From contig NW_027103826.1 in the NCBI RefSeq assembly GCF_902728285.1, positions 116,759 to 180,758 on the forward strand: DNA of 64,000 nt, given 5' to 3'. The notes below the pieces were generated by a model. It did not search any database, was not told where the DNA came from, and was given only the letters and a program-made list of their open reading frames with translations. This stretch comes from Clytia hemisphaerica (Eukaryota). The position numbers and the translations under genes were made by a program. Every line of letters starts with the position of its first letter. The first letter of the stretch is position 1. This document shows positions 20,629 through 51,020 of the stretch, one piece after another.

Positions 20629-20753
20629 TTAAAGAAAAATTGCAAAAATTATTTTTTTTTTAGATTTCTCAATTTTTGGCCTAAACTCACTCAAAAATGC
20701 TGAAAAACACCAAAAAATCACATTTTCAAATTTTTTTTTTCACTTTGTTTAAC

Positions 20754-25902: not shown

Positions 25903-26541
25903 TTAAGGAAGCCTGAGATTTCATAAAATGACGTATGTTCTAAATAACACTATTCTGAGTGCAAAAAAATGAGTCTCGTATTCTTATAAATGAAAGCCAT
26001 GCTTACTTTCCATCCACAGCCTCGAAGTGTGTCCATTTCAAACCTAATTCCCTCATCGAGTTCCTCATGTGCAAAAACCGATTTTTACGACGTTTCAAAT
26101 TGATGACAAAGATCTGTAAAAGAATTGAAAAGTGCTGGATTTGTATTCCAGTGCTTCTTTTTGCAATAGTTGTATAATAAAATGTTCAGGAAATGTATTT
26201 TCCATGTATTTAGGAAATTCAAACCATAGAAACTTTCGCATTCAGTTTTTTTTATTATCAATTCTAGTCATTTTCAGTTGATATCTAACCTTTCAATTAT
26301 TTTCGGTTTCCTTATTTAGAATGCATTGGATACTCAGATGGCTTAAGATTTTCGCCTTAAATTGTCCCCTTTACGTCCACTATGAGAATCCTCTTGTTTA
26401 GAGAAAATATTGATTGAAATAACGATTGACGTCAAATTGAAAAGGATCCTTGGGATCTTGAATCCTCAATTCAGAAATCCAATTTCCACAGAGTTAAGAT
26501 AAAAAATCCATGTCTTAGTGTGTCTCTACAGGGCAAAAATC

Positions 26542-28500
26542 GGATCAGGTGCAGTTAGCGTGGTCACTGGTTGGATTCTTTAGCAGTGGAGAGCACTGTT
26601 AAAGAATATAACCTAATGTCGTTTAACCTAATAATGTTATAAAATACAGACCAGAATATATTTCACTGTTAAACAATCCAACCTAGTCCACTGTTAAACA
26701 ATCCAACCTAGTCCACTGTTAAACAATCCAACCTAGTCCACTGTTTAACAATCCAACCTAGTCCACTGTTTAACAATCCAACCTAGTCCACTGTTTAACA
26801 ATCCAACCTAGTCCACTGTTTAACAATCCAACCTAGTCCACTGTTTTTTAACAATCCACCTAGTCCATACAGTCCAACTAGTCCACTGTTAACAATCCAA
26901 CCTAGTCCATGTTAAACAATTTGACCTAGTCCACTGTTAAACAATTTGACCTAGTCCACTGTTTAACAATTTAACCTATAGTCATGCCCGGTCCACTGTT
27001 AAACAATTTAACCTACAGTCATGTCCGGTTCACTGTTAAACAATCTGACGTAGTCCAACCCCTGGTCACTGTTTAACAATTTGACCTAGTCCACTGTTAA
27101 ACAATTTAACCTACAGCCATGTCCGATCCACTGTTAAACAATTTAACCTACAGCCATGTCCGGTCCACTGTTAAACAATCCAACTTAGTCCACTGTTTAA
27201 CAATCCAACCTAGTCCACTGTTTAACAATCCAACCTAGTCCACTGTTTAACAATCCAACCTAGTCCACTGTTAAACAATTTGACCTAGTCCACTGTTTAA
27301 CAATCCAACCTAGTCCACTGTTTAACAATCCAACCTAGTCCCACTGTTTAACAACAATCCAACCTAGTCCACTGTTAAACAATTTGACCTAGTCCACTGT
27401 TTAACAATCCAACCTAGTCCACTGTTTAACAATCCAACCTAGTCCACTGTTTAACAATCCAACCTAGTCCACTGTTTAACAATCCAACCTAGTCCACTGT
27501 TTAACAATCCAACCTAGTCCACTGTTTAACAATCCAACCTAGTCCACTGTTTAACAATCCAACCTAGTCCACTGTTTAACAATTTGACCTAGTCCACTGT
27601 TTAACAATCCAACCTAGTCCACTGTTTAACAATCCAACCTAGTCCACTGTTAAACAATTTGACCTAGTCCACTGTTAAACAATTTGACCTAGTCCACTGT
27701 TTAACAATTTAACCTATAGTCATGCCCGGTCCACTGTTAAACAATTTAACCTACAGTCATGTCCGGTTCACTGTTAAACAATCTGACGTAGTCCAACCCC
27801 TGGTCACTGTTTAACAATTTGACCTAGTCCACTGTTAAACAATTTAACCTACAGCCATGTCCGATCCACTGTTAAACAATTTAACCTACAGCCATGTCCG
27901 GTCCACTGTTAAACAATCCAACTTAGTCCACTGTTTAACAATCCAACCTAGTCCACTGTTTAACAATCCAACCTAGTCCACTGTTTAACAATCCAACCTA
28001 GTCCACTGTTAAACAATTTGACCTAGTCCACTGTTTAACAATCCAACCTAGTCCACTGTTTAACAATCCAACCTAGTCCACTGTTTAACAATCCAACCTA
28101 GTCCACTGTTAAACAATTTGACCTAGTCCACTGTTTAACAATCCAACCTAGTCCACTGTTTAACAATCCAACCTAGTCCACTGTTTAACAATCCAACCTA
28201 GTCCACTGTTTAACAATCCAACCTAGTCCACTGTTTAACAATCCAACCTAGTCCACTTTTTAACAATTTGACCTAGTCCACTGTTAAACAATTTAACCTA
28301 CAGCCATGTCCGGTCCACTGTTAAACAATCCAACTTAGTCCACTGTTTAACAATTTAACCTTAGTCATGTCCGGTCCACTGTTAAACAATCCAACCTAGT
28401 CCACTGTTAAACAATTCAACCTACAGTCATGTCCGGTCCACTGTTAAACAATTTGACCTAGTCCACTGATAAACATTCCAACCTAGTCCCATCCCTTGTC
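26542..28500 (+). repeat. Left arm of the giant element: unique terminus plus a ~1.85-kb minisatellite array (unit CCACTGTTTAACAATCCAACCTAGT, ~25 bp) with a ~730-bp higher-order periodicity
   Basis: Direct tandem units with variants (caatttgacctag, caatttaacctacagtcatgtccgg). Blocks at 26940..27180 recur at 27660..27900. Confidence 0.8.
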
Positions 28501-28699
28501 ACGAGTAAACAACCTAACTTAGTTTCATTCCTGGTCACTGGGTTCTTAAAAAAAGAAGAAACTCTCAGGCTCTCAGCTATCCAACGAGCTATAAAACAAA
28601 GTCTAAATCTTTCTGGTTCAGGAAGTATTGGCATTTAGATATTTTCCTAGCTCATTGTAACAAAAAAGGCACGGAACGCTGCTTGGTGAAAATACAGTA

Positions 28700-29950
28700 C
28701 ATGGTGTGATTTGCGTTGTCACTAAAAGAGGTAACGAGTGGTAAGGATGTGGTAACGAGTGGTAACGAGGTGGTAACGAGGTAACCAGTTAAATACGTTG
28801 GCCCTAAAAGGCTCTAATTTTGAATTACTCGATTCTGATGAATGTAGAGCAGGACAATGTTTCCAGTGAATATGATAGTGGAGTTGATGGTCCTGTTGAA
28901 TGTGCAGCAGGGGTTGGTGGTTTAGGTAAATGTGCATCAGAGTTTTATGGTTCTGGTGATTTTAATGGTGGAGTTGATAGTTCTGGTGAATGTGATGACA
29001 GAGTTGGTGTTTCTGGTGAATGGGAGGCAGAAGTTGATGGTTCTGGTTAATGTGCTGGTGGAGGTAACGTTACTGGTGAATTTGATGGTGGATTTGGTGG
29101 TTCTGGTGCATATGATTGTGGAGCAGGAGTTTGAGTTTCTTGTGGATGTAAGTTTGGAGCTTATAGGTATCTGGCAAAATAAGTCAAACACCGACAGTTG
29201 TTAATGTCTTTAGATAGATAGCATTTATCACAATTCTAGCCCTATAGAAAACTGTCAAACACTTGAATACAATATATCGAAATTCATGATAATCCATCCA
29301 TCCCAAGAACAACCAGACCTGATGTAGATCTACCAAAACTAACAGTCTTGCGCTAAGAAGCATCAGAACCAACATGTATTTCTGTAGAACCTTTATAACC
29401 ACAAGGATCTGTTGCATAACCACCAGAACAACCAGTTCCTGCACTGCAGAATCACCATAATCACAAGTTGCTGCTTAAGAATAAGCAGATCCTTTAGGTT
29501 TTGTTGCAGAATCACCAGAATAACAAGGTTCTGTTGCAAGGTCACCAGTTCATGTTGCAGAATCAACAGAACAAACATGTCCTGCTGCAGAATCACAAGG
29601 ACCACCAACTCTTCTATCACATTCACCTAAACCACCAACTCCTGATGCACATTCACCAGAACTACCAACTCTTGCTGCACATTCACCAAAACCAGCAGTT
29701 CCTGCGGCACATTCACCACAACCACTAGTCCCTACTGCAGATTCAACACAACCACCAGTTCCTGATGGACATTCACCAAAACCATGTTAACTAAAGCTGT
29801 AAAGGCATAAATCAGAATCGATTCTTTCGGTTTTACAATATTTGACTCTTTAGGGCTACCATTTTCAACTCGTTACCTCGTTACCACATCGTTACCACTC
29901 GTTACCAGCCGTTACCACTCGTTACCAGCCGTTACCACTCGTTACCACTT
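28700..29950. repeat. ~1.25-kb imperfect palindrome: GGTAACGAG mini-repeats and coding-like (GSGECD..VDGSG) 30 to 40-bp repeats on one arm, with their reverse complement on the other
   Basis: 28733..28790 (ggtaacgagtggtaacgagg..) pairs with 29866..29950 (ctcgttaccactcgttacc..). The 28820..29200 repeats are reverse-complementary to 29400..29780. The centre is near 29250..29350. Confidence 0.6.
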
Positions 29951-30754
29951 TTAGTAACAACGTGTGATTTAATGTATTTAGGAATTTGTATAAACTTTTT
30001 CTGCTTTTTCACACAGCCTACGTATTTATAAGGGCTACTTAGACTACACAATATATTGACGAACAATATTCGACAATATGGTTTGCGGACCGTAATGTAC
30101 GAAGTAAACAACTGGTACTCTATTATAAAAAGGAATTTTCTTTCTGTAAACAATCCCCCTTTATTGTTGGAATATTGCAAATCGAGCTGACAATATATTG
30201 CGGACACCTTTTCAATATATTGCCGACATTCAGCAATATACCATCAATATATTGCCCGACAATATATTGTGTAGTGTATGTAGCCCTATACGGTTTGAAA
30301 AGATGTTTTTACCGGTGTGAACCGGACACTCTCTATTGGTCATAACTCTATACCTAAATGGTTTGTCAGTGATTTGTTATCGGATATCGTATCTGTTCTC
30401 CGTTATGTCAGCTATTAAAATTAAAAAGTCATATAAAGATTTTTTTTAGCCAATCAGATTGCGTTTTGTCCTTGCGGCAAATGAGTAGAAGAAAAAAATA
30501 AAAACATATGTGTACTCCATTTTGAGAATGTGAGAATGAAGTTCAAGAAAAAGACTATTATTTATTTATCATGCATATTAAAAAGGCATTAACAATAGTG
30601 TCTACAATTTCTTCTTTTGTTCTTTCAAATCAAAAAAATACTTAAAGTTATATCTGGAAGCGTTTGCGTCGCTATTCACACATATATTTTTTTCTCATGG
30701 AAATTAATATTTCCACAAACGCAGGTTTTTCATATCATTGTCGACGCGTTTACT

Positions 30755-30936
30755 ATGGCTGCAGTGCATCGGAGATTTTTACAGAGATGGGGAGCATTAC
30801 TTTTAGGCAATGATAAAATTGCAATCATACATTTTCTACAAGGACAAGGTTTACTAAGTGTTGTCAAGATGTGTCAAACTTGTGGTTCGCCGATGCAACT
30901 TGAAGCTAATAGACAATGCCGTGATGGGTTTAGATG
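30755..30936 (+). CDS. IS1595/ISXO2-like (Merlin-superfamily) DDE transposase, exon 0 (ATG 30755; N-terminal zinc ribbon)
   Basis: MAAVHRRFLQRWGALLLGNDKIAIIHFLQGQGLLSVVKMCQTCGSPMQLEANRQCRDGFR(W) matches the IS1595 transposase zinc-ribbon N-terminus (..C..YL..RWP.G..CP.CG...). Donor tg|gtaagt is phase 2 and joins exactly to exon 1 (tg+g=W). Confidence 0.55.
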
Positions 30937-31822
30937 GTAAGTTTTTATCATGAAGTTGTAATCGTACCTTTAGTTTTGAGGCAATTTGAAATCCAACTTG
31001 CTCCCTTTGGGTTCTGGGTTAAGTTAAAGGCTCCTCCTTGCAAAAAGGCTAGAAATACATCTTAAAATAATTTATTACTTAGAATAAACACCCCTTCTTT
31101 TAAACACCTCCTCGGATAAAAGCCCCCTTTTTTAGGAAAATAATTAATAAACGTCTCCTCCTCAAATAAACGCTCTTCCCTGGAAGGGTTTTTTTATTTA
31201 AAAATAGGCTCTTAGTCGAAACTTTCATTTTGAGAGAGAAATGGATACTTCGACACACAAGAACAAGAACATCGATAATTTTTAAAAATGTTGTTATGGT
31301 ATAAAAATATATGTATCGCATTATCAAAAACAATTCTTCGTGTTTAATTTTTCAAAATTCTCGAATAAATGCGCACACCCCCTTAAAATCCAAAAAAACG
31401 AATTTTTCACGAATATGGCCCTAATTCGCAAAAGTTTCTTCAGAAAAATTAATCTCAGACAGGCAATTCGCAAAATATTTCTTTCGCGAAAGTTACTTTC
31501 TTTCAATCAATTTTTAGTCAGAGATAAAAAAATATTAAAATGATCTAAGAGACAATCATTAATTAATACAAATACATTTTCTAGTCCATAACAACTAACG
31601 TTTCCTTTTTTTCATCAAAACGTGATTAAAACAGTACGCATTTTTATATAATTTGCGAAAACTTCTTCCGTAAAAGTAATTTCGGAGAGCTCAATTCACG
31701 AAATATTTTCCGCGAAAATTACTTCCCTTAGGGTAGGAGCGATAATGGAATGTAGTTAGAAGGTCGGTTATGACAACATAAATTTTATCCAGACAATTTC
31801 TAACACAGATATTTTTGTTTAG

Positions 31823-32123
31823 GAGGTGTAACCGACCATGTCGCAGATGTTTGAGGCTCCGAGATGGGACAATATTTGAATCGTGGACGCATATTTCCCT
31901 TAGTGATTTATTTTTGATAATCTTCCTGTGGTCAAACAACGTTTCTATGACCAAAATAACGAATATTGTTGGAATACCAAAAAAAACAGTGATCAAAATG
32001 TTGCAGCTTCTTCGCCAAGTCTGTACGAATGATCTAGCCAGAAACCCAGTTGCTATTGGTGGTGGGGGGGGTGCTAATTTTGTTGTCCAGATTGACGAGA
32101 GCCAATTCCATCACAGGCAAAGA
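31823..32123 (+). CDS. Merlin/ISXO2-like transposase copy 1, exon 1
   Basis: Acceptor tttgtttag, donor AGA|gtatgt. Encodes RCNRPCRRCLRLRDGTIFESWTHISLSDLFLIIFLW..TKITNIVGIPKKTVIKMLQLLRQV..VAIGGGGGANFVVQIDESQFHHRQR. These are the second Cys pair, the HTH, and the first catalytic Asp of the DDE motif (V.IDES). Confidence 0.65.
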
Positions 32124-32324
32124 GTATGTTTTCATACGAGTGAGAGAGATTTTTAACTACATTTTGCTCAAAAGTTTGTCATTCTTTTAAATTTTTGATA
32201 GAATCGAATGCATATTTTGCAGTTTAGTCTTAACAAAAAAATTGAATATTTTCCAAAGTGCGTTCGACTTCATTACATAATGTTGTTTTGACCCTATTCT
32301 TTTAATTCTCGTTTCTTTATATAG

Positions 32325-32603
32325 GGAGGAAGAGGAAGAAGAGCGCAGGCACCTGTTTGGGTATTTGGCTTGGCCGATACTCAATACACACCCGCCAAAG
32401 GCTATATGGAAATTGTGAACAGGCGAAATAGGCCCACTCTCACTGCTGTAATTAATCGGGTTTTGAACCCTAACTCTGTCATACATAGCGATGAATGGCG
32501 TGCTTACAATAGGCTTCGAAACTTTGTACCGAACTGCATACAACACGATACCGTAAACCATACATACAACTTTGTCGATCCTCTAACAGGAGCCCACACA
32601 CAG
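32325..32603 (+). CDS. Merlin/ISXO2-like transposase copy 1, exon 2
   Basis: Acceptor tttatatag, donor CAG|gtaacc. Encodes GGRGRRAQAPVWVFGLADTQ..TLTAVINRVLNPNSVIHSDEWRAYNRLRNFVPNCIQHDTVNHTYNFVDPLTGAHTQ. This fits the ISXO2-like consensus (GGK.K.RGR...V.G.VER......L..II...V..GS.I.TDEW.GY..L..GY.H.TVNHS..FVDP.TG.HTN). Confidence 0.7.
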
Positions 32604-32809
32604 GTAACCAGACAATAATTTTTTGTAAAATTAGCCATTGGGCTCGGTACATTTTTTTAGTTCTCTGTAAAATTCTTGTAAAGTTTGCAGTTCCCTAAAA
32701 ACCCCACCCCACCCATAAAAGTAAAAGCTTTGAAAAGTGATATTTTTAACGTTTTTATATTTTAGAAAAGTTTATACTTTTTTCAAACCCTTTCTTTTTT
32801 TTTCATTAG

Positions 32810-32910
32810 AACATTGAATCGTACTGGAACCGTTTTAAGCTGAAACTGAAAGCTATGAAAGGTGTCGAACGAGCCAATTTACAAAGTTACATGAACGAGT
32901 TCATGTGGAG
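32810..32910 (+). CDS. Merlin/ISXO2-like transposase copy 1, exon 3
   Basis: Acceptor ttcattag, donor ag|gtaatt. Encodes NIESYWNRFKLKLKAMKGVERANLQSYMNEFMW (consensus NTIEGFWS.LKR...G...L..YL.EF.FR). Confidence 0.6.
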
Positions 32911-33232
32911 GTAATTATTTTTCAATCGGAAAGAAATGATTTGAAGCTACCTGACACTGGCAGGCCTCTCATAACAGATGAGATGAAGTTTTTATAAGAT
33001 ACTTTAATGATTGGTCATTTGAAGTAATAACAATGACGTGTTCTTTAGAAAAAGTAACAAAATTGTTTTATTACTGGTTAACGACCAACCGAATCAAATG
33101 AGAGCTTGTAAAAATTCAATCTCGTCCCTCTCATAAGGAATAAAACAGCTAGTCCTAAATTTTTATTGGGTTTAAACGTCATTTGATAATCCATAGATTA
33201 GGCAATTTAATGATTTTGTAATTCTTTTTTAG

Positions 33233-33305
33233 GGACTGGTATGGACTAGACCAAACATTTGACAACATAATCAACCGGATAAATATTGATTATCCACAAG
33301 CTTAA
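33233..33305 (+). CDS. Merlin/ISXO2-like transposase copy 1, exon 4 (stop TAA 33303..33305)
   Basis: Acceptor tttttag. Encodes (R)DWYGLDQTFDNIINRINIDYPQA*. The five exons sum to 936 nt, which is 312 codons, so the phases are consistent. Confidence 0.55.
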
Positions 33306-34503
33306 GTTTGCTTTCATTGAAGTATGATTTTTATGTTTTCTTTTGTTATTGATTCACAAGTCATAGTTTGACTTCTAGAGACTAAAGCTATTTTTAGGTA
33401 TTTTGTATGTATATGGTATAACATTTCATTATGCAGAACAAAGACTCTTACCATTAAAAATATACTTTAACTCTTTATATTTTGCCCTTTCCGCCAAAAT
33501 TTGTCTCGCGATATCGCGTGGGATCGTCGATTCGCGAAATCAAATCGTCAAATCCACGCGAAATTTTTGAAACTACCATTTTAGCAAACAAAGTTATCAA
33601 AACCATGCAATTTTGGTAAAATATGTCCATTTTTAGGGTCTTTCGCGAAATTATACTCACGCGAAAGTCTTGACTCACAAAATTAAATCCTATTAAAGTA
33701 GCCTTAATCTGTCTTATCTTGAAATTGTTCACATTGGTTAGTGCTCCTTCTTTTCCAGGCAACGTTGAAAAAAAGGTAAACAAACAGGGTAAAAAGGCAC
33801 GTATAGTAGTGACAGGAACAATGTGAAAAGTATACTTGGGTGCGATGTATACTTGTCTTGGGTGCGAGGAATACTTATGAAATGTACAGTGCTCAGTAAA
33901 ATTGTTTTGTGTAAGTTCCTGTGAAAAGTGCTGAACATCCTAGTTTGGAAGATAGGCAAAAAAGTGTTCTTTTTCGCAAAGGTTGATTTTAGTTAAATCG
34001 GAGTCAAATGGGTCAATCATGAAAATTAATTCTTGCGAAATATATAGTCAAATAATCTTGATTTCCTTAAGATTTGCTCAAAAATTAAGAACATCTTAAA
34101 AACATGCCAAGGTTGAAATGAAGAAGAAAAGTCTACTAAGGGATTCTTAACGCTTAAATAACAGACACAAAACATAATTTCAACATTGTTTCAATGTCCA
34201 ACTAATGTCTGATGTTGAAATAACATTTTTTGAACAACAAATTTCAAAGCTACTTTTTTGGATTCATTTTCTCAAAAAAATTGTTTTTAGCACTTACAAG
34301 TACCATAACGGGCGTTTTTCAGACTTGTCGAGCGCCCTCTCCACCCGATATAATTTATTTATAGAAGTGTATTTCTCAGGTCCATTGACCTCTATGAAAC
34401 AATCTTACATTTTTACAATTTATAGATCTTATCATTCGTTTGTCAATTCTGTTATAGAGTTTTACAGTTAGGTACCTGGGCCTCTAACCCACTCTTCTTA
34501 TAA

Positions 34504-35455
34504 TCATGTTGTTTCCGTCGAAAATTTCTTTAAATAGAGTTTAGTCCTAGGACTACCTCTCACTTTCCATATACCACTCTTGTCTTTTTCATTCGATGTT
34601 TTTTCTTTTGCTTTACGATGCCATTGTTTTATTATCTCCCGTTCTTTCCTTGAAAAATCGTCTGATACCCTGAAATCATCTTTATCTAGTTTGTGGGCTG
34701 ATGCAAGTATTCTAATCCTTTCTTCTTCACTCTCGAGAGTAACTTTCAATGGTCTCCATCGTTCATTTGTATACATTTCATCTTTACGAGCACCTATGCG
34801 TCTTCTACCTTGATTATCGTCACATCGAAAACCCATTTGTTGTTTCAGTATTCTTTCTATGAAATCTTTGTCACCAACTCGTTGCTCTTCTTCGTTTTCG
34901 TGCTTGTTTTCACCTAAATCATGCACCATGATGTTGCACTTGGTTGATTTGAGCCAACGCTCCTCTTCGTTCACTGATTTGATGAAACTTTTTATGGTCA
35001 CCTCTTGTTTTTTGTAGATCTTCTTTGGTGACTTCTGCATATGATTGTTTTTTTGTTTCTGTGTTGTTGAGCTGTGTTTCAGATCGTTTGTTGTTCCGTT
35101 CTTTGTTGACGTCTTTTTTTTTCATTAGCTTCTCGATTTTCCTTTCTAGAGAGGTTATTCTCTCGTTGAAACCTAATTTCAATCCATGATGTTCATCTTT
35201 GTCTGCTTCTTTCGTTGTGATGTCACTGCGAGCTTTTTGTCTGCTTGTTTTAATCCTCTCAAATAAGAGTGGCGTTATTGTAACACAATTTCCACATTCG
35301 AAGCGCCGGCTTTTATATTGCAGACAAAGCTGAATCTGATAGGCCGGGAGCTCAGAGCAAGCATAATGGACAAGTCTATCACATCTCCTACATTGTAAGG
35401 TGTCGTTATCTTCTATGATGGTGTTTATCAAACAGTTATTGGTTGTGCAATACAA
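34504..35455 (-). pseudogene. Frameshifted duplicate of the L1 ORF1p-like gene (tandem-duplication copy 1)
   Basis: Two overlapping frames (34504..35040 and 34919..35455) together cover the same protein as 39355..40302. Indels of 4 nt net break the frame. Confidence 0.55.
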
Positions 35456-36671
35456 TATCCATAATTTTTTTGAATTTCCTTGTTAGAATTTTCGTTGATT
35501 TCCGTCATATTGTTGCATTTTCAGGATCGTGGCAGCACAGAAAAAATTTGACGTCAATATATAAGGGGGGGTAAACCGGCCGGAGTACCATTTTCAACTA
35601 GTAATATCTCCTAAACCAAGCATTTTATGAGGCTTTTGTAGCTACCAATCGAAAGAGGACAAAATTCTGAACAAAAAAAACTGGTTTTGGGCGCCACCTA
35701 GCCGTTAACGATTATCACCATGCATTAACTCCTTTGATACCGTTCCAGCCAAAATCGTTCCTATTGGAACGACGTTTTCTCCAGCCTCTGATAGAAAGAA
35801 ATTTTCAATCGCTTTGAAACTGCATTTTCTTGAAAGTTGATACTTTTAATTAAAACGAAAACGACGTTTTCATACCGTGAAAAGCACAGCTCAAAATCAT
35901 ATATTTACGCTGTGCCGACGAATCGAGATTCTATTCATCGCGCAATCAGCGAAGACAAAAGTAACCATGACGACCATCCAAGATCTTGGATGAGCGTCAT
36001 AGTCGATATTTTTATTCCCGTCGTTGAAAACACAACTTACAAAAAGTCATCAATGCTTTTTAAAAAGAGTCAGTGATAGAGAATCATAACATAAAGTCTG
36101 TCTATTATTTCGATTCAATTAAAGTGACATTTCCATAATTAAAAGTTTAGTAATTACTGTTATACATTTGGGGATCATGTAAGAGATTTCTTTCGAAATA
36201 AACTCATTTCAACTAAACTTGGAGGTTGTTTCTGGGGAATTCGTAAATAGTAAACTGCATACTGATACAGTCTGCTAGACATTAATATGGTAATATTTGC
36301 TCTTCATCTTTGATTTTTTTTACAGTGATTAGATTGACACATGCGCGATAAAATTTCTATTATTTTGTCTTCAGAGGTTACTATTTTCTTTGAAAACTTA
36401 ACCTCTGATACTCAGGGTAACGTTTTCAAGTCTTTCATTAGTAAGTACGTTTCCTTTTTTTCATCAAAACGTGATTAAAACAGTACGCATTTTTATATAA
36501 TTTGCGAAAACTTCTTCCGTAAAAGTAATTTCGGAGAGCTCAATTCACGAAATATTTTCCGCGAAAATTACTTCCCTTAGGGTAGGAGCGATAATGGAAT
36601 GTAGTTAGAAGGTCGGTTATGACAACATAAATTTTATCCAGACAATTTCTAACACAGATATTTTTGTTTAG

Positions 36672-36969
36672 GAGGTGTAACCGACCATGTCGCAGATGTT
36701 TGAGGCTCCGAGATGGGACAATATTTGAATCGTGGACGCATATTTCCCTTAGTGATTTATTTTTGATAATCTTCCTGTGGTCAAACAACGTTTCTATGAC
36801 CAAAATAACGAATATTGTTGGAATACCAAAAAAAACAGTGATCAAAATGTTGCAGCTTCTTCGCCAAGTCTGTACGAATGATCTAGCCAGAAACCCAGTT
36901 GCTATTGGTGGTGGGGGTGCTAATTTTGTTGTCCAGATTGACGAGAGCCAATTCCATCACAGGCAAAGA
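36672..36969 (+). CDS. Merlin/ISXO2-like transposase copy 2, exon 1. This is the duplicated paralogue; its unit has no exon 0, so it is probably 5'-truncated
   Basis: Near-identical to 31823..32123 with one Gly codon fewer. There is no upstream zinc-ribbon exon inside its 4.85-kb unit. Confidence 0.5.
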
Positions 36970-37170
36970 GTATGTTTTCATACGAGTGAGAGAGATTTTT
37001 AACTACATTTTGCTCAAAAGTTTGTCATTCTTTTAAATTTTTGATAGAATCGAATGCATATTTTGCAGTTTAGTCTTAACAAAAAAATTGAATATTTTCC
37101 AAAGTGCGTTCGACTTCATTACATAATGTTGTTTTGACCCTATTCTTTTAATTCTCGTTTCTTTATATAG

Positions 37171-37452
37171 GGAGGAAGAGGAAGAAGAGCGCAGGCACCT
37201 GTTTGGGTATTTGGCTTGGCCGATACTCAATACACACCCGCCAAAGGCTATATGGAAATTGTGAACAGGCGAAATAGGCCCACTCTCACTGCTGTAATTA
37301 ATCGGGTTTTGAACCCTAACTCTGTCATACATAGCGATGAATGGCGTGCTTACAATAGGCTTCGAAACTTTGTACCGAACTGCATACAACACGATACCGT
37401 AAACCATACATACAACTTTGTCGTCGATCCTCTAACAGGAGCCCACACACAG
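37171..37452 (+). CDS. Merlin/ISXO2-like transposase copy 2, exon 2
   Basis: Same as copy 1 exon 2 with a 3-nt insertion (..NFVVDPLTG..). Confidence 0.5.
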
Positions 37453-37658
37453 GTAACCAGACAATAATTTTTTGTAAAATTAGCCATTGGGCTCGGTACA
37501 TTTTTTTAGTTCTCTGTAAAATTCTTGTAAAGTTTGCAGTTCCCTAAAAACCCCACCCCACCCATAAAAGTAAAAGCTTTGAAAAGTGATATTTTTAACG
37601 TTTTTATATTTTAGAAAAGTTTATACTTTTTTCAAACCCTTTCTTTTTTTTTCATTAG

Positions 37659-37759
37659 AACATTGAATCGTACTGGAACCGTTTTAAGCTGAAACTGAAA
37701 GCTATGAAAGGTGTCGAACGAGCCAATTTACAAAGTTACATGAACGAGTTCATGTGGAG
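37659..37759 (+). CDS. Merlin/ISXO2-like transposase copy 2, exon 3
   Basis: Identical splice sites and coding sequence to copy 1 exon 3. Confidence 0.5.
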
Positions 37760-38086
37760 GTAATTATTTTTCAATCGGAAAGAAATGATTTGAAGCTACC
37801 TGACACTGGCAGGCCTCTCATAACAGATGAGATGAAGTTTTTATAAGATACTTTAATGATTGGTCATTTGAAGTAATAACAATGACGTGTTCTTTAGAAA
37901 AAAGTAACAAAATTGTTTTTATTACTGGTTAACGACCAACCGAATCAAATGAGAGCTTGTAAAAATTCAATCTCGTCGTCCCTCTCATAAGGAATAAAAC
38001 AGCTAGTCCTAAATTTTTATTGGGTTTAAACGTCATTTGATAATCCATAGATTAGGCAATTTAATGATTTTGTAATTCTTTTTTAG

Positions 38087-38159
38087 GGACTGGTATGGAC
38101 TAGACCAAACATTTGACAACATAATCAACCGGATAAATATTGATTATCCACAAGCTTAA
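38087..38159 (+). CDS. Merlin/ISXO2-like transposase copy 2, exon 4 (stop 38157..38159)
   Basis: Identical to copy 1 exon 4. Confidence 0.5.
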
Positions 38160-39354
38160 GTTTGCTTTCATTGAAGTATGATTTTTATGTTTTCTTTTGT
38201 TATTGATTCACAAGTCATAGTTTGACTTCTAGAGACTAAAGCTATTTTTAGGTATTTTGTATGTATATGGTATAACATTTCATTATGCAGAACAAAGACT
38301 CTTACCATTAAAAAATATACTTTAACTCTTTATATTTTGCCCTTTCCGCCAAAATTTGTCTCGCGATATATCGCGTGGGATCGTCGATTCGCGAAATCAA
38401 ATCGTCAAATCCACGCGAAATTTTTGCTACCATTTTAGCAAACAAAGTTATCAAAACCATGCAATTTTGGTAAAATATGTCCATTTTTAGGGTCTTTCGC
38501 GAAATTATACTCACGCGAAAGTCTTGACTCACAAAATTAAATCCTATTAAAGTAGCCTTAATCTGTCTTATCTTGAAATTGTTCACATTGGTTAGTGCTC
38601 CTTCTTTTCCAGGCAACGTTGAAAAAAAGGTAAACAAACAGGGTAAAAAGGCACGTATAGTAGTGACAGGAACAATGTGAAAAGTATACTTGGGTGCGAT
38701 GTATACTTGTCTTGGGTGCGAGGAATACTTATGAAATGTACAGTGCTCAGTAAAATTGTTTTGTGTAAGTTCCTGTGAAAAGTGCTGAACATCCTAGTTT
38801 GGAAGATAGGCAAAAAAGTGTTCTTTTTCGCAAAGGTTGATTTTAGTTAAATCGGAGTCAAATGGGTCAATCATGAAAATTAATTCTTGCGAAATATATA
38901 GTCAAATAATCTTGATTTCCTTAAGATTTGCTCAAAAATTAAGAACATCTTAAAAACATGCCAAGGTTGAAATGAAGAAAAGTCTACTAAGGGATTCTTA
39001 ACGCTTAAATAACAGACACAAAACATAATTTCAACATTGTTTCAATGTCCAACTAATGTCTGATGTTGAAATAACATTTTTTGAACAACAAATTTCAAAG
39101 CTACTTTTTTGGATTCATTTTCTCAAAAAAATTGTTTTTAGCACTTACAAGTACCATAACGGGCGTTTTTCAGACTTGTCGAGCGCCCTCTCCACCCGAT
39201 ATAATTTATTTATAGAAGTGTATTTCTCAGGTCCATTGACCTCTATGAAACAATCTTACATTTTTACAATTTATAGATCTTATCATTCGTTTGTCAATTC
39301 TGTTATAGAGTTTTACAGTTAGGTACCTGGGCCTCTAACCCACTCTTCTTATAA

Positions 39355-40302
39355 TCATGTTGTTTCCGTCGAAAATTTCTTTAAATAGAGTTTAGTCCTA
39401 GGACTACCTCTCACTTTCCATATACCACTCTTGTCTTTTTCATTCGATGTTTTTTCTTTTGCTTTACGATGCCATTGTTTTATTATCTCCCGTTCTTTCC
39501 TTGAAAAATCGTCTGATACCCTGAAATCATCTTTATCTAGTTTGTGGGCTGATGCAAGTATTCTAATCCTTTCTTCTTCACTCTCGAGAGTAACTTTCAA
39601 TGGTCTCCATCGTTCATTTGTATACATTTCATCTTTACGAGCACCTATGCGTTCTACCTTGATTATCGTCACATCGAAACCCATTTGTTGTTTCAGTATT
39701 CTTTCTATGAAATCTTTGTCACCAACTCGTTGCTCTTCTTCGTTTTCGTGCTTGTTTTCACCTAAATCATGCACCATGATGTTGCACTTGGTTGATTTGA
39801 GCCAACGCTCCTCTTCGTTCACTGATTTGATGAAACTTTTTATGGTCACCTCTTGTTTTTGTAGATCTTCTTTGGTGACTTCTGCATATGATTGTTTTTT
39901 TGTTTCTGTGTTGTTGAGCTGTGTTTCAGATCGTTTGTTGTTCCGTTCTTTGTTGACGTCTTTTTTTTTCATTAGCTTCTCGATTTTCCTTTCTAGAGAG
40001 GTTATTCTCTCGTTGAAACCTAATTTCAATCCATGATGTTCATCTTTGTCTGCTTCTTTCGTTGTGATGTCACTGCGAGCTTTTTGTCTGCTTGTTTTAA
40101 TCCTCTCAAATAAGAGTGGCGTTATTGTAACACAATTTCCACATTCGAAGCGCCGGCTTTTATATTGCAGACAAAGCTGAATCTGATAGGCCGGGAGCTC
40201 AGAGCAAGCATAATGGACAAGTCTATCACATCTCCTACATTGTAAGGTGTCGTTATCTTCTATGATGGTGTTTATCAAACAGTTATTGGTTGTGCAATAC
40301 AA
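39355..40302 (-). CDS. LINE-1 ORF1p-like protein (Transposase_22-like RRM plus C-terminal domain) with an N-terminal PHD-like C4HC3 zinc finger and a coiled coil; 315 aa, intact
   Basis: The C-terminal half (KCNIMVHDLGE...FIERILKQQMGF...RWRPLKVTLESEEERIRILASAHKLDKDDFRVSDDFSRKEREIIKQW) parallels L1 ORF1p (NLRIIGVPE...R.IIVKF.K...KE.IL.AAREK....G..IRL.AD.SAET...RREW). The N-terminus is CLINTIIEDNDTLQCRRCDRLVHYACSELP..C..C, followed by a K/E-rich coiled coil. There is no RT or endonuclease ORF nearby. Confidence 0.6.
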   Translation of the reverse strand: MYCTTNNCLINTIIEDNDTLQCRRCDRLVHYACSELPAYQIQLCLQYKSRRFECGNCVTITPLLFERIKTSRQKARSDITTKEADKDEHHGLKLGFNERITSLERKIEKLMKKKDVNKERNNKRSETQLNNTETKKQSYAEVTKEDLQKQEVTIKSFIKSVNEEERWLKSTKCNIMVHDLGENKHENEEEQRVGDKDFIERILKQQMGFDVTIIKVERIGARKDEMYTNERWRPLKVTLESEEERIRILASAHKLDKDDFRVSDDFSRKEREIIKQWHRKAKEKTSNEKDKSGIWKVRGSPRTKLYLKKFSTETT

Positions 40303-41809
40303 TATCCATAATTTTTTTGAATTTCCTTGTTAGAATTTTCGTTGATTTCCGTCATATTGTTGCATTTTCAGGATCGTGGCAGCACAGAAAAAATTTGACG
40401 TCAATATATAAGGGGGGGTAAACCGGAGTACCATTTTCAACTAGTAATATCTCCTAAACCAAGCATTTTATGAGGCTTTTGTAGCTACCAATCGAAAGAG
40501 GACAAAATTCTGAACAAAAAAAACTGGTTTTGGGCGCCACCTAGCCGTTAACGATTATCACCATGCATTAACTCCTTTGATACCGTTCCAGCCAAAATCG
40601 TTCCTATTGGAACGACGTTTTCTCCAGCCTCTGATAGAAAGAAATTTTCAATCGCTTTGAAACTGCATTTTCTTGAAAGTTGATACTTTTAATTAAAACG
40701 AAAACGACGTTTTCATACATACCGTGAAAAGCACAGCTCAAAATCATATATTTACGCTGTGCCGACGAATCGAGATTCTATTCATCGCGCAATCAGCGAA
40801 GACAAAAGTAACCATGACGACCATCCAAGATCTTGGATGAGCGTCATAGTCGATATTTTTTATTCCCGTCGTTGAAAACACAACTTACAAAAAGTCATCA
40901 ATGCTTTTTAAAAAGAGTCAGTGATAGAGAATCATAACATAAAGTCTGTCTATTATTTCGATTCAATTAAAGTGACATTTCCATAATTAAAAGTTTAGTA
41001 ATTACTGTTATACATTTGGGGATCATGTAAGAGATTTCTTTCGAAATAAACTCATTTCAACTAAACTTGGAGGTTTCTGGGGAATTCGTAAATAGTAAAC
41101 TGCATACTGATACAGTCTGCTAGACATTAATATGGTAATATTTGCTCTTCATCTTTGATTTTTTTTACAGTGATTAGATTGACACATGCGCGATAAAATT
41201 TCTATTATTTGTCTTCAGAGGTTACTATTTTCTTTGAAAACTTAACCTCTGATACTCAGGGTAACGTTTTCAAGTCTTTTCATTAGTAAGAAAACGCCCC
41301 GCAAACTTTCTCATTTCTCAATTGTTCTCTTTCTGGCGGTATTGAAAGAGTTAAAACAACGCTCCGTGCCTGCTATTACGGTTCTCTAGAGAATTGGACT
41401 CGTATATAGAAGAACATTAAGAAGAACATCCCATCTGAAAATTGAGAAAATAAAGTCCAAATAATACGTAAATACGATTTTAGAACAAAATTAAAATGCC
41501 TTGCGCATGATTTTATTTTCGTCACCCGGTAATGCAGAAATGAAGAGTTTTTAGATTTGGCCGCGGGTTGAATTTTTTTCATTCATTCATTCATTCATTT
41601 AATGAATGAAAATGAAATGGGATGTCTTTTCCCCCAAAAGAGCAAGAAAAAAAATTTAATCACGTGTTTTTTTTTCTTTCACGTTTTTTTTCTTTTGTAT
41701 CCCCTTTTCATTTTTCTTTCTTTATTTGTTGGCTTGAACGTCAGACGTTCACATTAGTAAACTTTGAGGGAGATTTCATTTCGGTCATTTGCCAATTGAA
41801 ATCGTAATC

Positions 41810-43521
41810 ATGACCTTTGAAGACATATTAGCGATTTGTGAAGATGAGCAAGTTTTGATAAGGGAGCTGATGGATGCTGGCTTATTAGCGAGTACAAGAA
41901 AATGTATGAACCGGAGAAAACACGAAGACGATATTCAGATGATATTATTGCCAGATATGAAGACTTGGTAAGACGTTTTAATTTGCTTTTGTTTACCCTG
42001 AAAAATCATTTACGTTTCTATGAAGCTCTTTCTCCTTTCATGAATCTGATAAATATCAATCTCAAAGATGTTTGATACTTTCATTTGAAGTCTTAAAAGC
42101 CTTTAAATATAAAATATATCAAGAAACAAAGTCTAATAAAATATCAACACAATATATCAGCAGTAAACAAATAACTGACGCTTAAAAGCGGCAATTTTTT
42201 AATCCCCAGTAAGTTAATTATTTTTAACTTATTTTTTGCCTACATGTTTTTAAGGCGATGCCCAAGATGTACAAGCAAAGCTTCATTCAAGACGGGGTCG
42301 TTTTTTTCGCAAACAAATATACCACTTTCAAAATGGATTCAAGGCATTGATAGATGGGCACGCCAGATGAGCCTTAGGGTAATGATATATTTAAAAAAGA
42401 GGACACAATGAAAAAAACAGACCTTTATGTCCTTTATCGTAAATACTAACCTGATATTCATATGCTGAATTTTCTATCGGTACGTTTTTAAAGCTCTAAA
42501 GACACAATGAAAATATACCATCTACGTAGGCTAGGTCATCTTTTCAAAGCCCTACCTTAAGCTTAAGTAGCTAAATGCATACCCAGCAGGCATGGGACGT
42601 TGTTTTAACGTCCAAAATACGTTTTAAGAAATTTTAAGCTCTTAACAATTTCGGTCCAGTTTAAAAATAAAAACCAGTAAACAGTTTAAAATGTCTGCGA
42701 AATTTTCATGTAATAAAATATACTTTGATTCTTTAGGAGATTGCTGAGGATTTGGACTTGTCGATTCCTACAACAAGCCAAATGATGAAGCATTTTCGAG
42801 AGCAGTGTCAAAGTTTTTTCGACCGCAATCTTCATGAAACTGGTGGCCCTGGTATTCAAGTAAAAGTTAAAGAACTTAAGGTAATACCATTTTTACCGGT
42901 TGAAAGAGAGATCGCTACAATCGGTACAAAATCCTTTTTGCTTATTACCTAACCCTAACAAGAAACTATTTAAAAACAAAAGGTTGTTGAATCAAAACTA
43001 ACCAGATGGCCCGGCTGGTATCCTACTTAAAATTTGGGTATTTCTTAAAAAAGAGAATAGATAACATCGGGTGCCTAGGATTTGTTACTCTTAATCTAGA
43101 CTCAAATTAGTTTTATACTTTTTTTCAATAGAAATGCACCAACACGTGTAATATTCTTATCGCGTTAGATGGCAGTTGCGGACGAGGATACCTTTTCCAC
43201 AATACCAATGGAAGATTCCAGGAAGAAGATTATATGTTTGTGTCACCAATCAAGTCTGGAACCATGGTCTTCACCGACATTCGCGATTTAAACGTAAGGC
43301 CAAATGTTGCCATGTCCAATACTCTGGAGTTGTTTCAAGGCAATGACGATCAAGCGACACAAGCAATTAGATGGCTCAGGCACTTCAGAGGGGTACAATG
43401 TCAAAAGGCTGGTGCCCTATTATCTGAATATAATTTGCGCTTTTGGGTCGATGATGGACTGGAATTCCATGAAAGATTTTTTCAAGCTTTCGTAAGAAAC
43501 TATGAAAATGAATTTGTATAA
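41810..43521 (+). pseudogene. Divergent third IS1595/Merlin-like transposase paralogue, probably degenerate or catalytically inactive. Exon-like blocks at 41810..41967, 42737..42880 and 43132..43521
   Basis: Block A, MTFEDILAICEDEQVLIRELMDAGLLASTRKC.., is the N-terminal F.DE..C..L motif. Block B, EIAEDLDLSIPTTSQMMKHFREQC...TGGPGIQVKVKELK, aligns to ITNIVGIPKKTVIKMLQLLRQVC...GGGGGANFVVQIDES with the first catalytic D replaced. Block C, ..ILIALDGSCGRGY..FTDIRDLNVRPNVAMSNTLELFQGN..RHFRGVQCQKAGALLSEYNLRFWV, aligns to IHSDEWRAY..FVDPLTGAHTQNIESYWNRFK..LQSYMNEFMW. The GGK/RGR linker segment is missing and the A-to-B phases do not join cleanly. Confidence 0.4.
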
Positions 43522-43639
43522 ACTAAAATATATTGATCGCTAATTGTTGATTAAAGTGATAGTTTTTTATGGATCTATGAAAATCTTATATTTTTTATTG
43601 TTCTTTTTTTGAGAAAAAAAATATAAACTTAATTCCTAT

Positions 43640-44882
43640 GCTTTCATCGCCTATGCTTTCATCAATTTGACTAGGTCAAATTGTTTAACAGTGAACCGGA
43701 CATGGCTCTAGGTTGGATTGTTAAACAGTGGAAGGTTGGATTGTTTAAAAGTGGACTAGGTCAAATTGTCAGTGGACCGGACATGACTGTAGGTTAAATT
43801 GTTAAACAGTGGACTAGGTTGGATTGTTAAACAGTGGACTAGGTCAAATTGTTTAACAGTGGACCGGACATGACTGTAGGTTAAATTGTTAAACAGTGGA
43901 CTATAGGTTGGATTGTTTAACAGTGGACTAGGTTGGATTGTTAAACAGTGGACTAGGTTGGATTGTTAAACAGTGGACTAGGTTGGATTGTTAAACAGTG
44001 GACTAGGTCAAATTGTTTAACAGTGGACTAGGTTGGATTGTTAAACAGTGGACTAGGTCAAATTGTTTAACAGTGGACCGGACATGACTATAGGTTAAAT
44101 TGTTAACGTGGACTAGGTGGTTGGTTACTAGTGGACTAGAGGTTGGATTGTTTAACAGTGACCGGACATGGCTAGGGTTGGATTGTTAAACCGTGGATTA
44201 GGTTTGGCTTGTTAAACAGTGGACTGTAGGTTGGCTTGTTTTCACAGTGGACTTGGGGGTTGTTTAAACAGTGGACTGGTTGGATTGTTAAACAGTGGAC
44301 TAGGTTGGATTGTTTAAACAGTGGACTAGGTTCAAATTGTTTACAGTGGACTGTTGGCTTGTTAAACAGTGGACTAGGTCAAATTGTTTAACAGTGGACC
44401 GGATGTGTGGTTTGTTAAACAGTGGACTAGGTTGGATTGTTAAACAGTGGACTAGGTTGGATTGTTAAATAGTGGACTAGAGGTTGGATTGTTTAACAGT
44501 GAACCGGACATGGCTAGGTTGGATTGTTAAACAGTGGATTAGGTTGGATTGTTAAACAGTGGACTAGGTTGGATTGTTAGTGAAATTGTTAAACAGTGGA
44601 CTAGGTTGGATTGTTAAACAGTGGACTAGGTTGGATTGTTAAACAGTGGACTAGGTTGGATTGTTTAACAGTGGACTAGGTTGGATTGTTTAACAGTGAA
44701 CTAGGTCAGATTGTTTAACAGTGGACCGGACATGATTATAGGTTGGATTGTTTAACAGTGAAATACTTTCTGGTCTGTATTTTATAACATTATTAGGTTA
44801 AACGACATTAGGTTATATTCTTTAACAGTGCTCTCCACTACTAAAGAATCCAACCAGTGACCACGCTAGCTGCACCTGATCC
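43640..44882 (-). repeat. Right arm of the giant element: the same minisatellite in inverted orientation plus a unique terminus
   Basis: CTAGGTTGGATTGTTAAACAGTGGA units are the reverse complement of the left array. 44760..44882 is the reverse complement of 26542..26650. Confidence 0.8.
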
Positions 44883-45631
44883 CAAAAATCAAAACCACCC
44901 GATCGCCCTTTTCAGGAGTTCTGCAAATTCTAACTCAAGAGCTACAAATAAGGATTTTAAAATCATGTAAAGTCACCTCCTCAAATTCAGCAAAAGTAGG
45001 TTTAGGAAATCGATGAGGTATATTTGGACTTCGCACTATTTCCTCGCCGTGTGCTTCACCTGAAATAAGTGGATTTATATTGTTATTAAAGGTTATACTA
45101 GGAACAAGTGTAAATTATAGTCTATGCTCTTTCATAGGACACAGTTAATAAAGGGTCATTCGACATCAGTTATGAAATTGAACACTTTTCAACCAGACCA
45201 AAGGAAAACAACATCGGAAAATTTCGAAATACTAGGTTACGCAAGCTCTTTTTAGCGTATCAGAACTATACAGACGAACAAAGAATTAGTAGACATCTCA
45301 AAGCTACTAACTTTTGGAAAAATCTTTGGGGGGCAAATGCCCCCCCCCCCCCCCCGGTTGCTACGGGCCTGAACTGACCTCGAACCGGGAAAGCAACCAA
45401 GAGTTCCCAAAGAAGAAGCATTTTGAGCATTATTTGGCATTGAAATGTGCACCGATGGTATTCGAATACCTAATTAGAGGTATCTTGAATATAAAATGAG
45501 ATAAAAGCCAAAATTTTCGAAGTTGCTAAACATTTTAGGCTCAAAATCTATGCGCATCTTTTTGACTGAAATCCAGAAAATCCTTAGCAACTCCAGAACT
45601 CTTGAAAAGACTCGGAAAACAGATGACCTAC

Positions 45632-49381: not shown

Positions 49382-49924
49382 CACAATGAAAACTGACCTT
49401 CCGTTTCTTGTTTTATTTATCTATGATGAAAATATCAAAAAATATTCACCGAGCCATCAAGTGTATTTCTGGATGTGCGTACTCTGTATTCGTGCTTTTG
49501 TCTCTGAATAAAAACGGAGAAAGTAAATATAATACCAATACATCATACCATTGCAAAATTGCATTTTTACTTTATGTGGCATACATCTACATATTACACT
49601 ACGTATCATTTTTGATTGCAACTCGTTTTACTACCTCATCTACTAAATGGAGGTAATTAAGATAGATAATTAAAGAAAGTCTATTATGCTATCAATGAAA
49701 TACGGAAATGAATCAATTAAAGTGAATATAAACAAGCAACATGCTGAATGGACCTACCTGATTAACATCAGATGAAAATAAGAAAAAAGTGACAATAATT
49801 GTACAAAAATTCAGAATGGAAAAATAAAGCTTGTGTGTTGAATAATGTAAAATGGTAAAAAGGAATTTCCCCAAATACGAAAATCACTTAAACCATTCAG
49901 GCTCAAAAAACCTTTTAAGCTGTT

Positions 49925-51020
49925 TTTGGCCCAAATTTGCCCAAAATAATTTTCCTTAAAAATCTGGCTCCGTCACATTTTGGGCATTGCCATTTTGCAT
50001 TATTGTGCAAAAAATCAGAAAGAAAATATGAGTCAACATTGAGAAAAGCTATATTTTCTTATTTGGTTAAAGGGAATTTCCCCAAAAATACGAAAATCCG
50101 TCTTTTAAGGCAAATAAGAATTTCCCGGGAAAAACCACTTCAGTCATTCTTTAGAGAATCTTGCACCCCATCTTTGTACAAAAAATCAGAAAAAAGTAAT
50201 AACAGGATTTTGCATAAAGTCCAAAAAACCCTATATTAGGCAGTTTTTGACCCAAATTTGCCCAAATATATTTTTTTTCGAAAATCTGGCTCCGTCACAT
50301 TTTAGGCATTGCCATTTTGCATCATTGTGCAAAAAATCAGAAAAAAATAATGAGTCAACATTGAGAAAAGCTATATTTTCTTATTTGGTTAAAGGGAATT
50401 TCCCCAAAAATACGAAAATCCGTCTTTTTAGGCAAATAAGAATTTCCCGGGAAAAACCACTTCAGTCATTCTTTAGAGAATCTTGCACCCCATCTTTGTA
50501 CAAAAAATCAGAAAAAAGTAATAACAGGATTTTGCATAAAGTCCAAAAAACCCTATATTAGGCAGTTTTTGGCCCAAATTTGCCCAAATATATTTTTTTT
50601 CGAAAATCTGGCTCCTTCACATTTTAGGCATTGCCATTTTGCATCATTGTGCAAAAAATCAGAAAAAAATAATGAGTCAACATTGTTAAAAGCTATATTT
50701 TCTTATTTGGTTAAAGGGAATTTCCCCCAAAATACGAAAATCCGTTTTTTAAGGCGAATAAGAATTTTCCGGGAAAAACCACTTCAGCCATTCTTTAGAG
50801 AATCTTGCCCTCCATCTTTGTACAAAAAATCAGAAAAAAGTAATGACAGGATTTTGCAAAAAGTCCAAAAAACCCTATTTTTAGGTAGTTTTTGGCCCAA
50901 ATTTGCCCAAATTAACTTTTTCTCAAAAATCGGGCTCCGTCACGTTCTGGGCATTGCCATTTTGCATCATTGTGCAAAAAATCAGAAAAAACTAATGAGC
51001 CAATCCTGAGAAAAGCTGGT
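49925..51020 (+). repeat. Satellite: ~322-bp unit x ~3.4 copies (it produces the near-identical ORFs 49937.., 50247.., 50569..), followed by a (GACGAACG)n microsatellite at 51025..51055
   Basis: Units start at ~49925, 50247, 50569 and 50890, with >95% identity. Confidence 0.8.

Follow-up and report, generated by a model that had tools for sequence, protein, structure and literature searches.

Is a transposase-like gene that lacks the catalytic residues and lies beside transposase genes of the same kind a decaying remnant, a gene taken over by the host, or a working part of a transposon? The question was raised by a locus in a 64,000-nucleotide stretch of the genome of the hydrozoan Clytia hemisphaerica (contig NW_027103826.1, positions 116,759 to 180,758, forward strand; ~35% G+C), hereafter the window, whose numbering is used for all coordinates. 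Two neighbouring copies of a Merlin transposase gene are called copies 1 and 2, and the gene in question, at 41810–43521, is called copy 3. A first-pass annotation had flagged it as a third, divergent transposase paralogue with substitutions at catalytic positions, possibly decaying, domesticated or a repressor. We infer, with a probability of about 0.7, that copy 3 is an intact second gene of an 18.3-kb Merlin element and that its product is a DNA-binding protein without catalytic activity that partners or regulates the transposase.

Reading frames assembled from 41400–44000 gave a gene on the + strand running from an ATG at 41810 to a TAA ending at 43521, exactly the flagged interval. Its coding sequence of 816 nt was free of stops and specified 271 amino acids (aa) in four exons; all introns were GT–AG with pyrimidine-rich acceptors, and all junctions were in frame. 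Exon 1 (41810–41967) encoded residues 1–53 with the start of a zinc ribbon and ended in phase 2 within the codon of Trp53. Exon 2 (42255–42378) encoded residues 53–94, with an RCPRC zinc knuckle and the first helix of a helix-turn-helix (HTH) domain; exon 3 (42737–42880) encoded residues 95–142, comprising HTH and strand beta-1, in which Lys139 takes the place of the first catalytic Asp; and exon 4 (43132–43521) encoded residues 143–271, the remainder of an RNase H-like domain, and the TAA. Only three exon-like blocks had been recognized before, and the phases between the first two blocks (A to B) had been reported not to close. The junction had seemed open because exon 2, with its W|RCPRC zinc knuckle, was missed. 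In copies 1 and 3, intron 1 cut the corresponding Trp codon and had an identical phase, just ahead of an RC..C motif (W|RC). A UniProt entry of 127 aa (A0A7M5V6T5, P0121) was 100% identical to residues 121–247 and spanned the junction of exons 3 and 4. The protein agreed with full-length relatives at its start, M(N/T)F, and at its C-terminus; it was not truncated, as had been supposed, but full length for its family.

Comparison with transposases was made with a Merlin profile, an alignment of 39 Merlin transposases. By hhalign, this profile matched copy 3 alone over residues 11–141 with a probability of 99.2 and an E value of 1e-19, and aligned with a profile of the copy 3 family (the dead-paralogue family, described below) end to end over 254 columns with a probability of 99.8 and an E value of 8e-30. 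The C-terminal parts alone, family profile against Merlin profile, gave an E value of 1.8e-5, and the last exon of one dead-family member was matched directly by one Merlin transposase (E 0.026). Exon 4 of copy 3 as a single sequence did not match the Merlin profile significantly (E 0.14), so the homology of this exon was significant only once it was used as a family profile. Pairwise BLASTP of copy 3 with the transposase was marginal (E 0.016), and the Pfam domain DDE_Tnp_IS1595 found no match in copy 3 even at E 10, only weak HTH matches being seen. Judged by the profile alignments, copy 3 is a paralogue of the Merlin (IS1595-type) transposase that has diverged strongly, as the first-pass annotation had held.

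The catalytic D, D and E were invariant in 39/39 Merlin transposases. Copy 3 GGPG-IQVKVKEL aligned with Merlin GGGGanFVVQIDES, which placed Lys139 at the first Asp; the same substitution had been read earlier from IQVKVKELK, and it was borne out by the beta-1 register of the structural models. A BLASTP pairing of ILIALDGS with VVQIDES for the first Asp was rejected because the profile alignment and the secondary-structure register disagreed with it. The SDEWRAY block, which had been equated with ALDGSCGRGY, aligned instead with VFTDIRDLN, so that the second Asp was kept as D191; ALDGSCGRGY aligned with beta2–beta3 (VWVFG..GYM), copy 3 ILIALDGSCGRGYLFHN forming these two strands and matching Merlin VWVFG...GYMEIV. 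Alignment of the Glu region was ambiguous, hhalign pointing to D214 and helix registers to 213–222, and none of the candidate columns held an invariant acidic residue in the dead family. Across that family, the first catalytic position was K in 6/10 informative sequences, with E, P, D or L in the others, the second was D in 6, E in 7 and elsewhere R, N, T or Q, and 0/21 members matched DDE_Tnp_IS1595 at E 0.01. As far as these alignments go, the catalytic triad is not conserved in copy 3 or its family, and the substitutions are old and common to the family. Since it neither matched the Pfam domain nor kept the DDE triad, copy 3 was filed as a derived non-catalytic paralogue and not as a transposase.

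AlphaFold2 (AF2) models were compared for copies 1 and 3. The copy 3 model, built on an alignment of 21 sequences, had a pLDDT (predicted local distance difference test) of 94.8 and a pTM (predicted template modelling score) of 0.89; that of the copy 1 transposase had a pLDDT of 93.3. Copy 3 consisted of a zinc ribbon, a three-helix HTH and a beta1-beta2-beta3-alpha-beta4-beta5-alpha-alpha-alpha domain, and the order of strands and helices was identical in the two models. A Foldseek search of the PDB with the copy 3 model ranked HIV intasome integrase first; among solved structures none was related to the family by sequence. According to the model, copy 3 keeps the RNase H-like catalytic-core fold. 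The fifth residue of beta1 was D152 in copy 1 (strand 148–156) and K139 in copy 3 (strand 135–143); D217 closed beta4 in copy 1, and D191 came directly after beta4 in copy 3. The beta1–beta2 loop of copy 1 had 15 residues, was basic (GGRGRR) and was modelled with low confidence, whereas copy 3 had a 5-residue C-x3-C hairpin; helix alpha1 was 11 residues long in copy 1 and 6 in copy 3, and the Glu-carrying helix 16 and 11. A GGK/RGR linker exon had been described as absent from copy 3. The basic GGRGRR loop was indeed absent, but it is no separate exon in copy 1, where the GGRGRR segment opens an exon in which the second Asp lies too.

An exhaustive HMMER search with copy 3 returned 286 proteins at E 1e-3 or better. 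They included three full-length Clytia paralogues of 266–275 aa (XP_066923368.1, XP_066928349.1 and XP_066925006.1; 40–43% identity to copy 3), distant full-length intronless members from marine metagenomes (P0133, P0143) and many last-exon fragments. Word-indexed protein searches gave 0 matches for copy 3 and 2 proteins for the family alignment, and a scan of JGI metagenomes with the C-terminal family alignment gave no relatives. Family proteins were ~270 aa long and had invariant motifs of their own (GYLLHN..GRY, LFQGN and RG(I/V)xCxKAGGxxxEYN(L/F)RF), with C144, H165, W223, G229, C232 and E241 invariant and C148 replaced by His in distant members. Copy 3 carried every family-invariant residue, all of these and C148 lying in exon 4, and the invariant Cys and His residues were not shared with the transposase. 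In a neighbour-joining tree (200 bootstraps, saturated distances capped) the dead family was monophyletic in 200/200 bootstraps.

The closest relative of copy 3 was represented by environmental contigs of 0.65–1.3 kb (L003–L007). The positions of introns 1 and 2 were kept in L007 and the start of exon 4 in L003–L006; the introns themselves were unalignable with those of copy 3 and of different length. Over 220 aligned codons, the proportion of nonsynonymous differences (pN) was 0.24 and that of synonymous differences (pS) 0.77, the latter saturated, giving a pN/pS of ~0.3. By this comparison copy 3 is under purifying selection (dN far below dS). No array or terminal inverted repeat (TIR) was found in these contigs within 344 bp downstream of the gene. 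L003 and L004, from different studies, both stopped at the identical base, 344 bp past the stop codon; a shared end of this kind would be expected if a repeated sequence (array or TIR) began there.

The gene lies within an 18,341-bp element (26542–44882). An identical 8-mer, CAAAAATC, was found directly outside both ends (26534–26541 and 44883–44890), forming a perfect target-site duplication (TSD). The non-repetitive terminal part of the left TIR (26542–26663, + strand) began 5'-GGATCAGGTGCAG, and that of the right TIR (44761–44882, - strand) finished ...CTGCACCTGATCC-3'; the ends shared a non-repetitive terminus of 141 nt, identical at 137/141 positions and with a sharp boundary. Inside the left TIR stood a subterminal array (26664–28523, + strand) of ~70 copies of a 25-bp unit, GTCCACTGTTTAACAATCCAACCTA, with 37-bp variants (Tandem Repeats Finder), and inside the right TIR an array (43666–44760, - strand) of the 25-bp unit, inverted relative to the left one. 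The right array began 145 bp from the stop codon of copy 3.

The element also carried an intact transposase gene. Copy 1 (30755–33305, + strand) had five exons (30755–30936, 31823–32123, 32325–32603, 32810–32910 and 33233–33305) and encoded 311 aa that matched Pfam DDE_Tnp_IS1595 (PF12762) with an E value of 2.5e-20. Its catalytic D152, D217 and E257 were intact, at the columns invariant in 39/39 Merlin transposases, and it was 99% identical to XP_066936947.1 and XP_066924142.1, each annotated as an "uncharacterized protein [Clytia hemisphaerica]". A self-blastn comparison revealed an internal tandem duplication of 4.85 kb (31598–36445 and 36447–41290, + strand; 99.2% identical), of which copy 2 is a product and not an independent insertion; copy 2 had no exon 1 because the duplication begins inside intron 1 of copy 1, leaving exon 1 upstream of the unit. 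The two duplicates differed by small in-frame changes (GGGGG or GGGG; an extra Val). A nested insertion was also considered, and around copy 1 or copy 3 no TIRs of their own were found, only weak AT-rich matches. Matching TIRs and TSD indicated that the transposase, the duplication and copy 3 were the cargo of one element inserted as a unit. This element combined 5'-GG TIRs, an 8-bp TSD and an IS1595-type transposase with intact DDE, the hallmarks of Merlin being TIRs beginning with GG and TSDs of 8–9 bp (PMC8101967).

The pairing of transposase and dead paralogue was not confined to this locus, and elements related to the Clytia one, with different TSDs, were found in other organisms (L018 and L019). 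At a second Clytia locus, a transposase (XP_066923367.1, P0014) and a dead paralogue (XP_066923368.1, P0122) had consecutive accessions and were on the same 2,894,991-bp contig, which strongly suggests that they are neighbouring genes. In a different eukaryote (L019), a complete element of 7,767 bp (L019:6189–13955) was bounded by a perfect 8-bp TSD, GAAAATTG, and had the terminus (C/G)GACCATGTGCTAAT and inverted arrays of a 21-bp unit. Between these arrays lay a dead paralogue (10001–10798) and then a Merlin transposase (12309–13229), both intronless and on the same strand. A third TSD-bounded element (L018:4258–12127) had the TIR GGCAAAACCG..., the TSD CTATACTT, inverted 24-bp arrays and termini that agreed at 93.5% over 139 nt. 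A dead paralogue was represented by its last exon, ~1.1 kb from the right array; no transposase was detectable, and the element has the look of a derivative copy. Instead of a Merlin transposase that could be recognised, it had an open reading frame (ORF) of 630 aa (L018:6422–8314) with a faint Mutator-family Pfam signal. The transposases paired with a dead paralogue (copy 1, P0014 and that of L019) formed one clade in 193/200 bootstraps, and identity between paired loci was 27% for the paralogues and 51% for their transposases. The tree suggests that the paralogue arose once, by duplication of the transposase gene, and then travelled with the transposases of one Merlin clade.

The arrays had a core in common, reading CCACTGTTTAACAAT in the Clytia window, CCACTGTTGTACAAT in L018 and CCACTTTGGTATACAAT in L019. 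The motif CCACT-N5-7-ACAAT had 81 matches in the window against 0.6 expected, all of them within the arrays, the 56 in the left array all on the + strand and the 25 in the right array all on the - strand; it was present in the arrays of L019 and L018 too. The TIR tips of the Clytia element (GGATCAGGTGCAG) and of L019 (GGACCATGTGCTA), compared by eye, matched at 10/13 positions.

Copy 3 gives the element what a two-component transposon has, a second element-encoded protein with a predicted DNA-binding domain (zinc ribbon and HTH). In the mechanism we propose, the copy 3 protein would bind element DNA through this domain, the likely target being the subterminal repeats with the core CCACT-N5-7-ACAAT. 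It would associate with the transposase through its RNase H-like domain and might act as a non-catalytic architectural subunit, or as a regulator, of end recognition and synapsis. A bolder version, in which one Merlin lineage is an obligate two-protein system whose dead paralogue, an ancient duplicate now specialised for structural and DNA-binding tasks, coats the CCACT-N5-7-ACAAT arrays and forms a heteromeric transpososome with the transposase, is tentative, and we are inclined to doubt it more than to believe it.

The rival that has to be taken most seriously is an inhibitor encoded by the transposon, which would compete for end or subterminal sites or poison transposase multimers and so damp transposition; the "repressor or regulator-type derivative" proposed by the first-pass annotation is a live possibility in this sense. 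A gene inside the element whose product has the DNA-binding architecture of the transposase and no catalytic triad is what such an inhibitor would look like. Known inhibitors of this kind, however, usually come from the transposase gene itself, as truncated or frameshift products, whereas copy 3 is a separate full-length gene whose product keeps the RNase H-like fold complete and has acquired new invariant residues. Its relatives have been co-inherited with one transposase clade over a divergence deep enough to leave the paralogues 27% and the transposases 51% identical, and population-genetic argument expects selection on a transposon to maintain a pure self-inhibitor to be weak. For these reasons a positive or architectural role was favoured over pure inhibition, which we regard as rather unlikely. 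The enzymatic alternative, a nuclease or transposase with a rearranged active site (D191 with D214/D215, for example, or Cys and His as metal ligands), could appeal to the intact RNase H-like fold and to acidic residues that are common, though not invariant, at 191 (13/20) and at 214/215. But most members have Lys for the first carboxylate, none of the acidic positions is invariant, and the residues that are invariant, Cys, His and Trp, are more typical of a structural site; we give this alternative almost no credence.

Whether copy 3 belongs to the transposon at all was weighed against two other origins. It might be a domesticated Merlin derivative, a cellular gene such as a DNA-binding regulator whose position in a transposon is secondary. 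This would fit the purifying selection, the conserved introns and the annotation of divergent low-copy paralogues as ordinary Clytia genes, and one relative's locus, seen in 23 Tara samples, suggests a fixed locus in that host. An intact ORF under purifying selection, though, is also expected of a functional transposon gene; copy 3 is enclosed by matching TIRs and a perfect 8-bp TSD beside an intact transposase; the unrelated L019 element holds the same pair within its own TIRs and TSD, and in L018 the last exon stands beside an array. A host gene outside any transposon, as domestication had implied, is improbable in view of this position and of the recurring pair. Decay had been the other suggestion: copy 3 would be the dead remains of an old Merlin copy, nested in a younger one or lying beside it. 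The missing Pfam transposase domain, the replaced catalytic residues and the lack of a RefSeq protein model point that way, yet the 816-nt coding sequence is intact in four exons with canonical splice sites and no stops or frameshifts in 271 codons, all family-invariant residues are present, pLDDT is 94.8 and pN is far below pS. The catalytic substitutions, moreover, are family-wide and not private to copy 3, around which no separate TIRs or TSD were found. An intact ORF, a confident fold, a conserved family and purifying selection argue together that copy 3 is not a decaying pseudogene, and we consider decay very improbable.

Several points weigh against copy 3 as a functional second transposon gene. 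DNA binding, interaction with the transposase and an effect on transposition are all predictions for copy 3, drawn from its sequence. Its full-length transcript is likewise a prediction of the gene model, and there was apparently no RefSeq model in the protein searches, only the UniProt fragment of 127 aa. C144, C148, H165 and C232 are a putative structural zinc site, read from conservation. Some family members, perhaps XP_066928349.1 and XP_066925006.1 among them, may be immobile host genes. In L019 the paralogue and the transposase each have one in-frame stop, and the gene order there is paralogue–transposase, as opposed to transposase–paralogue in Clytia. Finally, the large internal duplication and the nested repeats imply that this Clytia element may no longer be mobile.

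Other features were observed in the element and around it, and no Rfam families were found within it. A palindromic element of ~257 bp (30031–30287) lay ~500 bp upstream of the transposase start codon and contained all five exact window copies of a palindromic decamer, CAATATATTG (0.11 expected); it could be a miniature inverted-repeat transposable element or a cluster of regulatory or binding sites. AATATATTGAT also occurred after the stop codon of copy 3, at 43527–43537. Between the left array and the transposase, 28714–29962 was a foldback-like nested repeat with inverted GGTAACGAG sub-repeats at its ends and 30-bp tandem repeats inside. At 34504–35455 (- strand), and duplicated at ~39350–40300, two overlapping ORFs of 178 aa with a weak PHD-finger match (E 9e-4) and a coiled-coil-like character probably belong to a piece of some other mobile element that is nested in the transposon. 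Outside the transposon, local duplications or tandem repeats were seen at 20013–21374 (99.5%), 49904–51017 (~90–94%) and 60411–61733 (~83–88% identity).

Two sets of related proteins showed further features. One, on a cluster of Tara scaffolds (L008–L017; P0148/P0301), came from 23 Tara samples with its sequence unchanged and its neighbouring ORFs alike and, being one locus in many samples, was uninformative on copy number; most of these contigs began ~1.8–2.1 kb upstream of the exon, a common start that suggests an assembly break at a repeat. Six long proteins of 0.8–1.75 kaa in public assemblies (P0128, P0130, P0132, P0135, P0150 and P0204) contained 2–5 zinc-ribbon and HTH modules matching residues ~50–140 of copy 3; either Merlin-type DNA-binding modules are arrayed in them or, perhaps, several genes were merged into one model.

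A Merlin lineage that stably carries a dead copy of its transposase would add a new example of subunits specialising within a mobile element. One hydrozoan and at least one other eukaryote (L019) have such elements, the L018 element being a further derivative. The dead-paralogue family is unannotated, with no Pfam model and no solved relative, so that transposon surveys relying on DDE_Tnp_IS1595 miss it and its members could be mistaken for host genes or pseudogenes. The elements, with two small proteins and a defined, repeated candidate binding motif, offer a simple test system for what non-catalytic paralogues add to transpososome assembly or self-regulation, and later host domestication could plausibly draw on transposon-borne dead paralogues. 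The literature searches turned up no account of a Merlin with two genes; Repbase annotations were outside this search, and a prior description there is possible.

Among known systems, the nearest are the Merlin superfamily of DNA transposons and the bacterial IS1595 family, reportedly treated by Feschotte in 2004. The Clytia element resembles them in its 5'-GG TIRs, 8-bp TSD, DDE_Tnp_IS1595 transposase and internal tandem repeats. It differs in its kilobase-scale inverted subterminal arrays, within elements of 18 kb here and ~7.8 kb in L019 and L018, and in the second, catalytically dead paralogue that this lineage adds. Merlin and IS1595 elements have been described with a single transposase gene (PMC8101967). 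If the two-protein reading is true, copy 3 would give the Merlin/IS1595 superfamily its first described accessory protein.

A non-catalytic DNA-binding protein that cooperates with the transposase is familiar from PIF/Harbinger (transposase and a Myb-like protein) and from CACTA/En-Spm (TnpD and TnpA), where CACTA TnpA binds arrays of subterminal repeats. The Clytia element is like these in being a two-gene cut-and-paste element whose second protein is predicted to bind DNA. The second protein of PIF/Harbinger and CACTA, however, is unrelated to the transposase, whereas that of the Clytia element is a full-length transposase paralogue with the same three-domain layout. The two-ORF organisation of both superfamilies has been described (PMC5543537, PMC8978399).

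The Merlin pair can also be set beside other non-catalytic relatives of transposases. Conserved, putatively domesticated Merlin ORFs of alveolates, the sole group for which the Merlin survey mentions them, some without an intact DDE, were found via the DDE domain (PMC8101967). They lack TIRs and TSDs and still match DDE_Tnp_IS1595, and the copy 3 family is the reverse on both counts. IS1 InsA, Tn5 Inh and the KP/66-kDa repressor of the P element are element-encoded, non-catalytic proteins that share DNA-binding determinants with the transposase. These inhibitors are truncated or alternative transposase products, whereas copy 3 is a separate, ancient duplicate with the catalytic-domain fold whole. 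In Paramecium, the PiggyMac-like proteins are catalytically dead paralogues that keep the transposase fold and are essential partners of active PiggyMac, a domesticated piggyBac. Those are host genes for programmed DNA elimination, while the Merlin pair is carried in mobile elements bounded by TIRs and TSDs; if the two-protein reading is true, the pair would be a transposon-borne counterpart of the division of labour between PiggyMac and the PiggyMac-like proteins.

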